Assembly (NCBI GenBank): GCA_965116905.1 | Contig: OZ220732.1 | Location: 3,712,001-3,776,000, forward strand | Length of the DNA stretch: 64,000 nucleotides | Origin: Longimicrobiales bacterium | GTDB lineage: Bacteria > Gemmatimonadota > Gemmatimonadetes > Longimicrobiales > Gaopeijiaceae | Direction of reading: 5' to 3' | Part shown: in pieces, positions 1-3,687 of the stretch | How the letters are laid out: every line of letters begins with the position of its first letter | How positions within the stretch are numbered: the first letter of the stretch is position 1 | Position numbers and translations under genes: made by a program | Notes under the pieces: model-generated | Databases searched by the model: none | What the model saw: the letters and a program-made list of their open reading frames with translations, nothing else | What the model was told of the DNA's origin: nothing

Positions 1-1177
1 CGCGCTCCTGGTTCGCCTGGACGAGCTGCATGGGCTGCAGATAGGGATCCTTCCAGTTCCAGATGTCCAGGGCGACCCTGTCCTGGTCCAGCGTGTCGTC
101 CTCTTCCTCGGGCTCGGGGCGCGGCGCGGTGCCGAAGCGGATTCGTCCGCCGCCGTCCGAGAAGTTCACGTTGCCGTTTTCGCTGACCCACCAGCCTTCG
201 GGGATCCCGGGCGTGGCCGATCCGGCCATTGACGCGCCCGTCCATTCGGGGGCCGACGCGTGGTACAGGGTGAACGCGGCCTGCTCGGCCTCGTAGTCGT
301 CGCGGTCGGACAGGAACGCGGTCTGGGCCCCGTCCTCCGAGACGGCCAGCTGCTTGTAGTTGCCCTCGCCCTCCATGACCGCGTGACGCGCAGCGGTCGC
401 CAGGTCGACGATGAAGACGCCGTCGCCGGATCCATCGCTGGTCGACGTTGCGAAGGCGAGGACCTCGGCGTCTTCGGCGAAGAAGAAGTCGGTGACCTTT
501 TCGTACCGGATTTCGTCGCCGGTCGCGAGGTTGAGCAGGACCAGTGGCGAACCCTCATCCTTCTCCTTTTCCTCGTCGTCCTCCTCTTCGGCCGCTTCCT
601 CCTCCGGTTCCGGCTCCGGTTCGGGCTCCGGCGCGGGCTCTTCGGCCTCCTCCTCTTCTTCGGCCTCCCCCTCTTCTTCGGCTTCCTCCTCTTCGACCGG
701 GACGTAGGCCACCCAGATCCCGCTGCCCGCCACCTTGTGGCTCTCGATGGCGGCCACCGTACGCGCCTGAATCCCGCTGCCTCCTCCACCAAGGGTCACG
801 ACACCCAGCGAATCCTTCGGCAGCGCATCACCCCTCTTGCCCTCCCGCCTCAGCGAATCCACCACCGCTTCCACCGGCGGCACCTCGTACACCACGAACC
901 GGGAATCGGAGGTGAATCGTGGGCTCGTTCCCCTCAGCGTCAGCGGCTCGGCCCCTTCGCGCGCGGCGCGGACGGTGAGCACCGGGTCGCCCTCCATGGC
1001 CGTGAGCACGAACACCAGCCAGTCGCCGTCCGGTGACAGCGAGGGGCTGCCGATCGTGTTCCAATGCAGCACGTCCTCGTGGTCCAGGGCGCGCTGCTGC
1101 GCGATGGCCGGGGCGGCGGCCGCGAGGAAGGCGAGGGAGAGGATGAAGGCCATTGTGCGGGCGCGCGCGTGACGCAT
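1..1177 (-). CDS. S9 family (prolyl oligopeptidase-like) peptidase, N-terminal part; runs off the window start
   Basis: Read manually on the minus strand: GGAG RBS, then MRHARARTMAFILSLAFLAAAAPAIAQQRALDHED (signal peptide), SLSPDGDW propeller-type segment and the DIWNWKDPYLQPMQ motif typical of this peptidase family. The catalytic domain lies outside the window. Confidence 0.75.
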   Translation of the reverse strand, partial: MRHARARTMAFILSLAFLAAAAPAIAQQRALDHEDVLHWNTIGSPSLSPDGDWLVFVLTAMEGDPVLTVRAAREGAEPLTLRGTSPRFTSDSRFVVYEVPPVEAVVDSLRREGKRGDALPKDSLGVVTLGGGGSGIQARTVAAIESHKVAGSGIWVAYVPVEEEEAEEEGEAEEEEEAEEPAPEPEPEPEPEEEAAEEEDDEEKEKDEGSPLVLLNLATGDEIRYEKVTDFFFAEDAEVLAFATSTSDGSGDGVFIVDLATAARHAVMEGEGNYKQLAVSEDGAQTAFLSDRDDYEAEQAAFTLYHASAPEWTGASMAGSATPGIPEGWWVSENGNVNFSDGGGRIRFGTAPRPEPEEEDDTLDQDRVALDIWNWKDPYLQPMQLVQANQER

Positions 1178-1326
1178 GGTGGATTCTCCAGGCTGGAACA
1201 TCGGGGACTTCGCGTCGGAAGAATGGTGTGCCAGCGAAGAAGCTGTGGAGGATCCGGTCGAGCCGCCAGTGTCAGGGGGTCGGGCCGGCGCGCTGGCATG
1301 ACCGCCGTGGCGCGCCGGCCATCGAC

Positions 1327-1692
1327 TCAGTCGCCGCCCGTCCCGAAGACCGAAGCGAGGATGTCCCGGTTGTACCCCACGACAAACGTGGTGCCAACCC
1401 GCATGGCGGGAGCCCGCAGCTTGCCCCAGCGGCTGGTCATCATCGCCGTCAGTTCGCTGTCGGACGGCCGGTCATCGCCGGCGAGGTCCACGCGGACGAC
1501 CTTTTTCCCCTTCGCCACACAGAGCTCGGTCATCCCCTCGAGCAGGGAGGTGGCTTCCCTGGCGGTCACAGGGTTCTTCGACGCGCTTCTCGTTTCAGCC
1601 GCGTCGATTCCGTTCTGCGCAAGAAACTCCTGCGTGCGTTTGCAGCTGGTTCAACCAGGGCGGTGGTAGCGCCATTCAAGGTTGCGGCTCAT
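1327..1692 (-). CDS. ArsC/Spx-like thioredoxin-fold selenoprotein (UxxC)
   Basis: GGAGG RBS and ATG at 1692 give MSRNLEWRYHRPG-TGA-TSCKRTQEFL, continuing in frame into the listed 80-aa ORF (LRAPAMRVGTTFVVGYN, ArsC-family C-terminal motif). TGA is at 1653-1651. Confidence 0.85.
1618..1634 (-). promoter_or_regulatory. Candidate bacterial SECIS hairpin
   Basis: CGCAGGA-GTT-TCTTGCG stem-loop starts 16 nt after the in-frame UGA and has a G in the apical loop. Confidence 0.55.
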
Positions 1693-1734
1693 TGGTGGGT
1701 TCCCTCCGGTTCGCTGTCCATTGGGCCGGTGCTC

Positions 1735-2982
1735 CTACCGGCTCCTCAAGATAAGCTCGCGGACTTCCACGCGCTCCACCCCGAATCCGTCCGTGGACAC
1801 GCCGACGACTTCGCCCCCGCCGACCTCCTCGACCGCGAAGGACGACGGAACCTCGACGCGGCCCAGGTATCGGCCGTCGGCACCGAAGACATCCCAGCGG
1901 AGTGCCGAGGCGCCGCGCTCGCTGTACCGGCGCGCCCAGAGTTCTCCCGTATCGGCGGTGCGCAGATCGGTGTAGGCGGGGAGCGTCTCCGGCAGCGGCA
2001 TTTCCCGGTAGTTTGCAATCATTGTCCGAATGGAAGCCTCGTCCTCGGCGAACGGGTTGCCGGAATTGCGGACATAGGCTTCCAGGTGCTCGTCGGTGCG
2101 CGGCGTCGGGGGTGCGGCAAGCCGGACGATCCTGTCCAACGTGCCGGTGTCGTCGAACACGCTGACCTCGTATCGGGTGCCCGCCGTGACCACGATGCCA
2201 CGGTTCGACCCATTCGCCGATGGCTCCGGCGAGAAGGGCACCCGCAGGAGGTCCAGGGACATGCTGGCGCCGCTGCCGGAAGCCGAGACCGACATCATCA
2301 TGCCCGGGTGGCGGGCGACGGTGTCGATCGGCACACCGTCCAGACGGTACCTGACGAAGTACTCCGGTGGACCCTCGTCTCCTCCGAAGGCCTCTTCAAG
2401 GCTCTCCAGCGGTGACTCCGCATTGCCGGGCATCGTGAGAGACCGCACCCGGCTCAGGAAGGTTGTGGGACCCGCGGGCCCGACGGGTGTAACCATGCCC
2501 ATGCCCCCGACGCCCGCAAGGGTCTCGGTGCCCAGCAGCGTTCCCCGGGAGTCGAATCGTGAAATGCGCTGCTGGCGCCTGTCCGCCGCAACCATGCTCC
2601 CGTCCGCGAGCAGCCACGCCCCGACCAGCGCCTGGAACTCCCCTGGCCCCTCTCCCCGGGCTCCGAAGGAACGCAAATGGCGGCCCTCGGCGTCGAATAC
2701 CCGAACCTCGCCCGCGCCGTTGTCGGCCACGACGAGGTTGCCGGCGCCATCGCGGACAACGCTGACGACACCGTCGAAGAGGAGTTCCTCCGGCCCTTCC
2801 AGGGCGCCGATCGACAGGGACGGCTCGGCCGCGAGTTCGCCGTAGACTGCGCCGGTGGGCAAGCTGGTCACGACGGTGACTCCAGCCGAGTCGACAACCT
2901 CTGCGGCCGGCGCTGCGGATGGCCGGTCGCCGCCACAGCCGGCCAGCGCCAAGGCCGCGATTCCGTGGGCGATGCGTCTCAT
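1735..2982 (-). CDS. 6-bladed beta-propeller (TolB/NHL-like) lipoprotein
   Basis: Lipobox LAGC, VVDSAGVTVV, FGARGEGPGEF and WDVFGADGRYLG motifs. Start re-called at MRRIAHG. Confidence 0.75.
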   Translation of the reverse strand: MRRIAHGIAALALAGCGGDRPSAAPAAEVVDSAGVTVVTSLPTGAVYGELAAEPSLSIGALEGPEELLFDGVVSVVRDGAGNLVVADNGAGEVRVFDAEGRHLRSFGARGEGPGEFQALVGAWLLADGSMVAADRRQQRISRFDSRGTLLGTETLAGVGGMGMVTPVGPAGPTTFLSRVRSLTMPGNAESPLESLEEAFGGDEGPPEYFVRYRLDGVPIDTVARHPGMMMSVSASGSGASMSLDLLRVPFSPEPSANGSNRGIVVTAGTRYEVSVFDDTGTLDRIVRLAAPPTPRTDEHLEAYVRNSGNPFAEDEASIRTMIANYREMPLPETLPAYTDLRTADTGELWARRYSERGASALRWDVFGADGRYLGRVEVPSSFAVEEVGGGEVVGVSTDGFGVERVEVRELILRSR

Positions 2983-3198
2983 GGCTGCTGTCCTTCCGAT
3001 CCCTGTCCGGGGTCTTGCCGTGGCGGACGCGCCAGGCTTAAGCTCGCCACCACTTTGGACACTCCCAAAAACTTGACACTCCGAAAACGCTTTGGTTGTC
3101 CGTCCTATCCGCGGTCCAGCACCCATACCATACGCGAAAGGCAAGCCCCGATGACTTCGACAACCCAGCTGACTTCGACAATCCCGCCAACCTCCACC

Positions 3199-3687
3199 AT
3201 GCCGCGCAAGTCCCCGGTTGCGGCCCTGGCCGCCGCGCTCCCCGTTCTGGCCATGGGCTGCGAAGGCGCCGGTACGGCCGGTGAGATGCCGATGCAGGAC
3301 GCCGCGCCTGCCGTGGAGTTCGTCAACGCGCGCTCGGCCGCCGACGGCGACGGGGTGCTGCCATTCAGCGGAGCCGTGTGGGTCGACAACACATTCTACG
3401 TGTCCGGCATGCTCGGGCTCGAGGGGGGCCAGGTTCCGGAGACCGCCGAACAGGAGGCCACCAATGTCCTCGATGGCATCAAGGGCGTCCTGGAGGGCGA
3501 GGGGCTGACGATGGACGATCTGGTGGTGGTTCAGGTGTTCGCCTCCGACGTGGACGACTACGACGCCTTCAACAGCGTCTACCGGACCTACTTCACCGGC
3601 GAGTTCCCGGCCCGCGCGTTCCTCGGTTCGGGGCGGCTCCTGTTCGGAGCCAGGTTCGAGGTGATGGGGACTGCGGTGCGGCGATAG
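3199..3687 (+). CDS. RidA/YjgF family protein with a lipoprotein signal
   Basis: PFSGAV..YVSG, FNSVYRTYF..FPAR and FEV motifs; N-terminal hydrophobic stretch ending AMGC. Alternative start at 3151. Confidence 0.8.
   Translation: MPRKSPVAALAAALPVLAMGCEGAGTAGEMPMQDAAPAVEFVNARSAADGDGVLPFSGAVWVDNTFYVSGMLGLEGGQVPETAEQEATNVLDGIKGVLEGEGLTMDDLVVVQVFASDVDDYDAFNSVYRTYFTGEFPARAFLGSGRLLFGARFEVMGTAVRR

Follow-up and report, generated by a model that had tools for sequence, protein, structure and literature searches.

On the minus strand of the window (the whole stretch of DNA that was analysed, 64,000 nucleotides), a frame of 121 codons runs from an ATG at 1692–1690 to a TGA stop at 1329–1327 and contains a single internal TGA, codon 14 (1653–1651), around which it spells YHRPG-TGA-TSCKRT. 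The first-pass annotation had described an 80-residue open reading frame as the tail of this 121-residue frame, opened by a GGAGG-preceded ATG at 1692, with the TGA in the place of the first cysteine of a CxxC motif and a 7-bp stem with a GTT loop 16 nt past it. The sequence bears out these points: codons 14–17 read TGA-T-S-C, and the stem CGCAGGA/GTT/TCTTGCG occupies 1634–1618 on the minus strand, with its onset 16 nt after the TGA. A start codon is found at or near the equivalent position in most relatives. The gene is single-copy in the source genome (G000), where it scores 102.2 bits on the family model NF041106 from DNA with the stop included. The GC-rich hairpin directly behind the stop codon (Table 1) is a possible, putative 3′ end or processing signal; no U-tailed terminator and no sigma-70-type promoter was predicted for the gene within 1100–3200.

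The flanking genes lie on the same strand. The downstream gene (2–1177) encodes a secreted, TolB-propeller/S9-peptidase-like protein with a Glu/Pro-rich acidic stretch (about 545–700), and the upstream gene (1735–2982) a lipoprotein-like 6-bladed beta-propeller (PF17170). A comparison of neighbours at 46 loci, with up to 1.5 kb of flanking DNA, showed synteny at genus level only and many shadow-frame clusters, and no neighbour gene was conserved beyond the genus within these flanks. The neighbourhood was rejected as a clue to function because the neighbours are common to few close relatives only.

Table 1. Features of the gene in the window, and further genes of the source genome with in-frame TGA codons (positions prefixed G000:C1)
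Feature	Position	Strand	Remarks
Full coding sequence, ArsC-related selenoprotein (very probable)	1327..1692	minus	121 aa + TGA stop; NF041106
Shine-Dalgarno-like GGAGG	1703..1707	minus	10-nt spacer to ATG
In-frame TGA, inferred selenocysteine	1651..1653	minus	TGA in 45/46 loci; Cys in 53/68 full-length representatives
U-T-S-C redox motif, residues 14–17, start of helix 1	1642..1653	minus	C17 in 56/56 aligned; model helix H15–26
SECIS hairpin, 7-bp stem, A-U-closed	1618..1634	minus	GUU loop 1627–1625; 23 nt from UGA
Inserted subdomain and Pro motif, residues 36–95: helix, beta-hairpin (56–69, VAKGKK turn), helix	1408..1587	minus	AlphaFold2, predicted
R93-A94-P95, invariant	1408..1416	minus	P95 aligns to thioredoxin-fold cis-Pro; A94 in place of ArsC/Spx Arg
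80-aa truncated ORF reported by gene callers	1327..1569	minus	GTG start 1569; tail of the 121-codon frame
GC-rich hairpin directly 3′ of the stop codon, without U tail	1279..1326	minus	z = −2.74; 2/200 shuffles as stable
Likely selenoproteins: two peroxiredoxin/BCP-like (UxxC; TxxU), secreted-looking; AhpD-like CFYU; formate dehydrogenase alpha; SelD	G000:C1 TGA 3903242; 3912652; 3674310; 3656670; 641802	minus; minus; plus; plus; plus	
Two OsmC-like genes (L076, L077)	G000:C1 TGA 169688; 1254176	plus; minus	7-bp GGA-loop hairpins 26 nt downstream
MerB-like (alkylmercury lyase-like) gene (L079/L087), candidate	G000:C1:3690355-3691080	minus	In-frame TGA C1:3690576

On the NCBIfam model NF041106, 'ArsC family (seleno)protein' (curated cut-off, 85 bits), the protein translated through the TGA reaches 109.6 bits over model positions 1–105 of 107, and the U/C-x-x-C motif near the N-terminus that is a feature of this family is present at codons 14–17. 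Only the core fold bears out the initial description of the protein as 'ArsC/Spx-like', as the tests for the Spx and ArsC families failed. The Spx/MgsR models stay under their cut-offs (TIGR01617, 31.9 vs 75.05; NF002459, 27.4 vs 123; NF009210, 18.8 vs 159), as do PF03960 (ArsC; 21.3 bits vs 24) and the glutaredoxin models. Among named homologues, the nearest are truncated 'hypothetical proteins' from Gemmatimonadota, to which phylum the source organism therefore probably belongs. A profile search among 1.84 billion representatives returned 921 proteins at E ≤ 0.001; among the best 150 of these, 68 are full length, 42 begin right after the TGA codon and 40 begin further downstream, leaving 82 with the N-terminus missing. 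The gene itself is stored as an 80-residue fragment (P0003), and gene callers thus truncate it as had been foreseen. At the TGA column, the 68 full-length representatives carry Cys in 53 cases, Trp in 12, and Gly, Ser and Leu in one each; the first-pass annotation had proposed looking for cysteine at exactly this position. The Trp and Gly entries probably reflect TGA translated under code 4 or 25 by gene callers.

Reports of this family reach back to the GOS study of 2008, which tabulates 'Arsenate reductase 2, cd03032, UxxC' with 42 sequences (PMC2398784). Its Dataset S1 places JCVI_READ_1235979, with the motif EWRYHRPGUTSC, under 'Arsenate reductase 2, UxxC' (PMC2398784), and as far as this entry goes the read is a clear orthologue, the motif being common to both. 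In the same dataset, the heading also takes in further Spx-like proteins of the UxxC type in which R-R/K-P is retained (PMC2398784). A table in a 2026 review lists the family as 'Arsenate reductase-like protein, UxxC' (PMC13188914), and the accompanying text describes such proteins as largely uncharacterised. 'ArsC-like' selenoproteins are named in a 2006 list that may concern another family (PMC1794560), and the available text on BSepDB mentions the ArsC-like family solely as a usage example (PMC13326102). The main text on deep-Sep contains no mention of ArsC or arsenate (PMC12013277), and the available portion of a Planctomycetes paper has no passage on an ArsC-like family (PMC4807772). A search of mainly open-access literature turned up no experimental study of NF041106. 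The gene adds one more member to a curated selenoprotein family that has been on record since 2008; it is not new in kind, given the curated model NF041106 and the orthologue in the 2008 dataset. The main gain is a corrected annotation, as what the database stores is an 80-residue hypothetical protein without the active site.

The source genome contains selA, selB, selC (a tRNA-Sec with a UCA anticodon) and selD, all over cut-off, and selD itself has an in-frame TGA. All four genes that the first-pass annotation had suggested searching for are therefore present, in support of its view that the organism decodes selenocysteine. At least seven other genes likely encode selenoproteins and have similarly placed hairpins, namely those for FdhA, SelD, an AhpD-like protein, two Prx-like proteins and two OsmC-like proteins. 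One of the OsmC-like pair scores 31.5 on NF041052 against a cut-off of 95, and the other is without a match at 1e-6. The crude genome scan that gave these seven also gave one weaker candidate, the MerB-like gene, the motif of which (IGFT-U-RNIV) shows a T-U context in contrast to the C-U of SaoL; its hairpin is weak (5 bp). This gene has no match to the SaoL model at 1e-6 and scores far under the cut-offs of the MerB models, and one in-frame TGA, counted at any column, lies in the best match of 10 of 30 relatives. It is possibly a less-catalogued selenoprotein and is kept as a candidate. Collectively, these results show that the lineage decodes selenocysteine, with roughly nine selenoproteins. 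In a genome scan based on coding potential, the ArsC-like gene scored weakly (0.07 downstream, −0.06 upstream) and fell outside the top list; as this gene was missed, the list of selenoproteins may be incomplete, and the scan lends no support to the gene. Two other features of the genome were recorded in passing: an array of 17 tRNA genes in tandem, all on the same strand (G000:C1:1296478-1298432), and a 360-aa ORF (L083, G000:C1:3214800-3218210) in which an N-terminal domain, which we take from its motif to be Sua5/YrdC-like, seems to be joined to a phosphatase domain of the low-molecular-weight type.

To describe how the TGA is distributed, we compared related genomes at the levels of family and phylum. 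In the family sample, 21 of 61 genomes carry the gene over cut-off, each with one TGA, and two more have partial copies; the TGA occupies the same column in all 23 family-level loci. The selA gene is present in 44 of the 61 genomes and in 20 of the 21 over-cut-off carriers. Among the 17 family genomes lacking selA, the gene is carried only by G007 and G008, both of which are fragmented: neither selA nor tRNA-Sec was found in G007 (78% complete, 620 contigs), and in G008 (88% complete) tRNA-Sec was found and selA was not. Since 23 of the 44 selA-positive family genomes have no match to the gene, it appears to be optional. Of the 201 genomes in the phylum sample, 37 match: 36 carry one TGA (seven of them without a retrieved locus, the TGA column being read from the remainder only) and one, G199, carries TGC. 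This cysteine form (locus L050, genome 98% complete) is the exception among the 46 loci overall and belongs to the only one of the 37 matching genomes in which selA was not found; its three genus mates (G200, G240, G247) have both the TGA and selA. When the samples are combined, the TGA is present in 52 of 53 gene-bearing genomes, and selA in 50 of these 52, the genomes and loci counted being kin rather than independent samples. At least four families of the phylum retain this TGA, and the sequence on either side of it stays conserved in frame. A shorter, divergent version of 104 aa (L072 in G204, and genomes of family f7) scores 79.9 bits, just below the NF041106 cut-off; versions of this type retain the TGA without the standard hairpin register, and selA is present in all eight such genomes.

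The hairpin alone is within chance. Its stability was rejected as stand-alone evidence (the 64-nt region has z = −1.10 vs shuffles), and a stem of at least 7 bp with a G-loop follows 3072 of 49,497 filtered TGA triplets (6.2%) in this 68% GC genome. The conservation of the TGA together with the stem, however, lifts the hairpin above chance. Across 23 sequences, the stem positions pair in 96.3% of cases, compared with 30–68% in slid controls, and the stem holds 7 doubly changed cells, a count as high being reached in 0 of 500 shuffles; two pair-count measures on the same sequences were not significant (52 and 55 of 500). RNAalifold retrieves the 5-bp core of the hairpin. In the TGA loci, the silent third base of codon 20 (Thr20) tracks non-synonymous changes of codon 25 (ACG/GCG in 36, ACT/GAG in 3, ACA/GTG in 1 and NCC/GGA in 2), and where codon 21 changes from Gln to Arg, a silent change at codon 24 compensates. 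Additionally, the hairpin shows a fixed use of rare codons: TTT, CTT and CAA occur in 37, 41 and 28 of the 45 TGA loci, and their usage in the long ORFs of the source genome, where alone it was measured, is 10%, 6.6% and 8%, respectively. All five core pairs are kept in 43 of the 45 TGA loci, and two of five in the cysteine gene of G199, which has lost the hairpin. Fewer than six of the seven pairs form in this register in three of the 45 loci, namely L023, L053, where the hairpin is shifted by one base, and the divergent L072. The calculated fold energy is −9.8 kcal/mol from the UGA to the end of the stem; the bare 17-nt hairpin gives −7.1 and so narrowly misses the threshold. In its geometry (3-nt GUU loop, 7 bp, 23 nt), the hairpin agrees with the bacterial SECIS model given in the legend to Fig. 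2 of PMC13188914, including the N1-G-U-N-N2 loop pattern. Conservation, covariation and fit to the bacterial SECIS geometry agree in supporting the SECIS-like hairpin noted at first.

The window DNA occurs in sponge metagenome runs. In contigs from 4 of 23 runs (contigs only, with X1 possibly from the source sample), no alternative letter appears at 1651–1653, so that the TGA is not an assembly error; a TGC or TGT in reads, which the first-pass annotation had named as the refuting case, has no counterpart in these contigs. The RNA-run contig X6 spans the gene alone (1331–1681, 11 differences, depth 4.6), and contig X3 covers the entire stretch; contigs of RNA libraries may derive from DNA, and we do not read transcription from these two.

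To relate the sequence to a fold, we used an AlphaFold2 model of the protein (pLDDT 92.6 for the whole and 86.1 for the insert alone). In the model, the core resembles glutaredoxin and U14-x-x-C17 lies where helix 1 begins; the insert is predicted as a helix, a beta-hairpin and a helix. The top Foldseek match is Spx, but with a TM-score of about 0.5 and an rmsd of 5–8 Å. VIA-align superposes the model about equally well on Spx (Z 8.5 for 88 aligned residues, rmsd 2.7) and on a small thioredoxin-like protein (Z 8.0 for 74 aligned residues, rmsd 2.4), which indicates that the shared part is mostly the core. The insert alone gave no Foldseek match at E ≤ 0.001 and a best VIA Z of 3.0 among 48,161 chains; we do not read a new fold from these searches, because a 60-residue piece is too short for them to show either a new fold or a difference. 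With respect to single residues, R93, A94 and P95 are each conserved in 56 of 56 aligned sequences and in 145, 133 and 145, respectively, of the best 150 representatives, and R11 is present in all 68 full-length ones. ArsC positions were aligned via an ArsC-like protein of a relative. On this basis, the Arg107-equivalent position is Tyr/Phe in 53 of 56, and the Arg60 equivalent aligns to V59–G62, varying by method, with K/R61 nearby and the region predicted to fold differently; the mapping of A94 and the Tyr/Phe position to E. coli ArsC numbering is our assumption.

Taken together, we are almost certain that the gene encodes a selenoprotein. In bacteria, SelB-GTP-Sec-tRNA binds the hairpin loop and brings selenocysteine to the UGA; here, UGA codon 14 would be decoded as selenocysteine through the conserved downstream hairpin. 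Judging from fold and motif, U14 at the N-terminus of helix 1 in the glutaredoxin-like core would be the nucleophile and would attack an oxidised substrate, C17 would resolve the adduct, giving a selenenyl-sulfide that a cellular reductant would then recycle. With less assurance, R11, R93 and the basic beta-hairpin may select an anionic substrate or partner. The reading as a whole, an NF041106 selenoprotein with UGA-14 read as selenocysteine via the hairpin and acting as a stand-alone selenol/thiol oxidoreductase, seems to us probable. As regards mechanism, the name ArsC is likely a misnomer. We raise more tentatively, from the predicted model, the possibility that NF041106 is a structurally separate thioredoxin-superfamily branch misnamed ArsC, with R11 and R93 beside the selenol and a specific anionic substrate. 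If this were true, NF041106 would be an undescribed selenoenzyme activity, with an insert without a clear solved counterpart. Moreover, the selenocysteine versions (G200, G240, G247) and the cysteine version (G199) within one genus would offer a ready contrast for what selenium adds.

Other functions can be considered for such a selenoprotein. It might be a non-classical reductase of arsenate or another oxyanion, in which R11, K18 and R93 replace the arginine triad of ArsC; the ArsC/Spx-like core, the resemblance of H10-x3-U14-x3-K18 to the HX3CX3R motif in the relevant passage of PMC3169414, and the conservation of R11 (68/68) and R93 (145/150) would suit this role, as would the genome, in which no further PF03960 ArsC was found and the two LMWP-family proteins look like phosphatases. 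We regard this role as unlikely in view of the Ala in place of Arg before the cis-Pro, the Tyr/Phe at the Arg107-equivalent position, the absence of ars genes among shared neighbour clusters at the 46 loci, the absence of an Acr3 exporter over cut-off in the genome (ArsB and ArsM lying outside the search) and the presence of a resolving cysteine. Glutaredoxin-coupled ArsC is a monothiol enzyme without a resolving cysteine.

Likewise conceivable is a selenocysteine-containing redox switch of the Spx type, which would bind to the C-terminal domain of RNA polymerase alpha and so redirect transcription: among solved structures, Spx gives the closest match in both sequence and fold, its CTSC agrees with the motif here, and the protein is small, basic and without operon context. 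The middle domain of Spx is helical and is the site of alpha-CTD contact, whereas this region is predicted as a beta-hairpin in our model; furthermore, TIGR01617 and NF002459 score far under cut-off, the Foldseek superposition is poor, and the Arg of Spx before the cis-Pro is Ala, all of which make such a switch improbable. Finally, the TGA might simply end translation, mark a pseudogene, stem from faulty assembly or be reassigned to Trp/Gly, so that no selenoprotein would be made. This is hardly credible: the chance level of the hairpin taken singly and the 12 W and one G entries at the TGA column speak for it, but the TGA is kept in at least four families of the phylum between flanks conserved in frame, tracks selA, shows no variant in run contigs, and also serves as the stop of this gene and of many relatives' genes, so that it is not reassigned genome-wide.

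We next compare the protein with known systems. It scores over the cut-off of NF041106 (ArsC_rel_Se_1) along the whole model and shares the UxxC, AKGKK and LRAP motifs with it, with no difference of kind. With Spx/MgsR (B. subtilis Spx; PDB 1z3e, 3gfk, 3ihq, 7f75), it has in common the glutaredoxin-like core, C/U-T-S-C, the conserved Pro and a GY/FN motif; unlike Spx/MgsR, it has selenocysteine for the first cysteine, Ala for the Arg before Pro, and a predicted beta-hairpin insert rather than a helical bundle. ArsC (E. coli, PDB 1i9d) and YffB have the same superfamily core, and in them, too, H-x3 precedes a redox residue that sits where helix 1 starts. As described in the part of PMC3169414 that concerns these proteins, E. 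coli ArsC requires Arg60, Arg94 and Arg107, and ArsC and YffB have a helical bundle at the place of the insert. In contrast to ArsC, two of the three arsenate-binding Arg positions are non-Arg here and the third is unalignable, a resolving cysteine is present, and no ars context was seen at the loci compared. The small NrdH/glutaredoxin-like redoxins (BC3987, PDB 3zit; NrdH, PDB 1h75) have a dithiol-type motif, and their core superposes as well as that of Spx does, at Z 8.0 and an rmsd of 2.4 across 74 residues; they are without the roughly 50-residue insert and attack with cysteine, whereas selenocysteine stands at this position here. Collectively, as far as the predicted model goes, the protein is likely closer to a small stand-alone selenol/thiol oxidoreductase than to a classical arsenate reductase or an Spx regulator.
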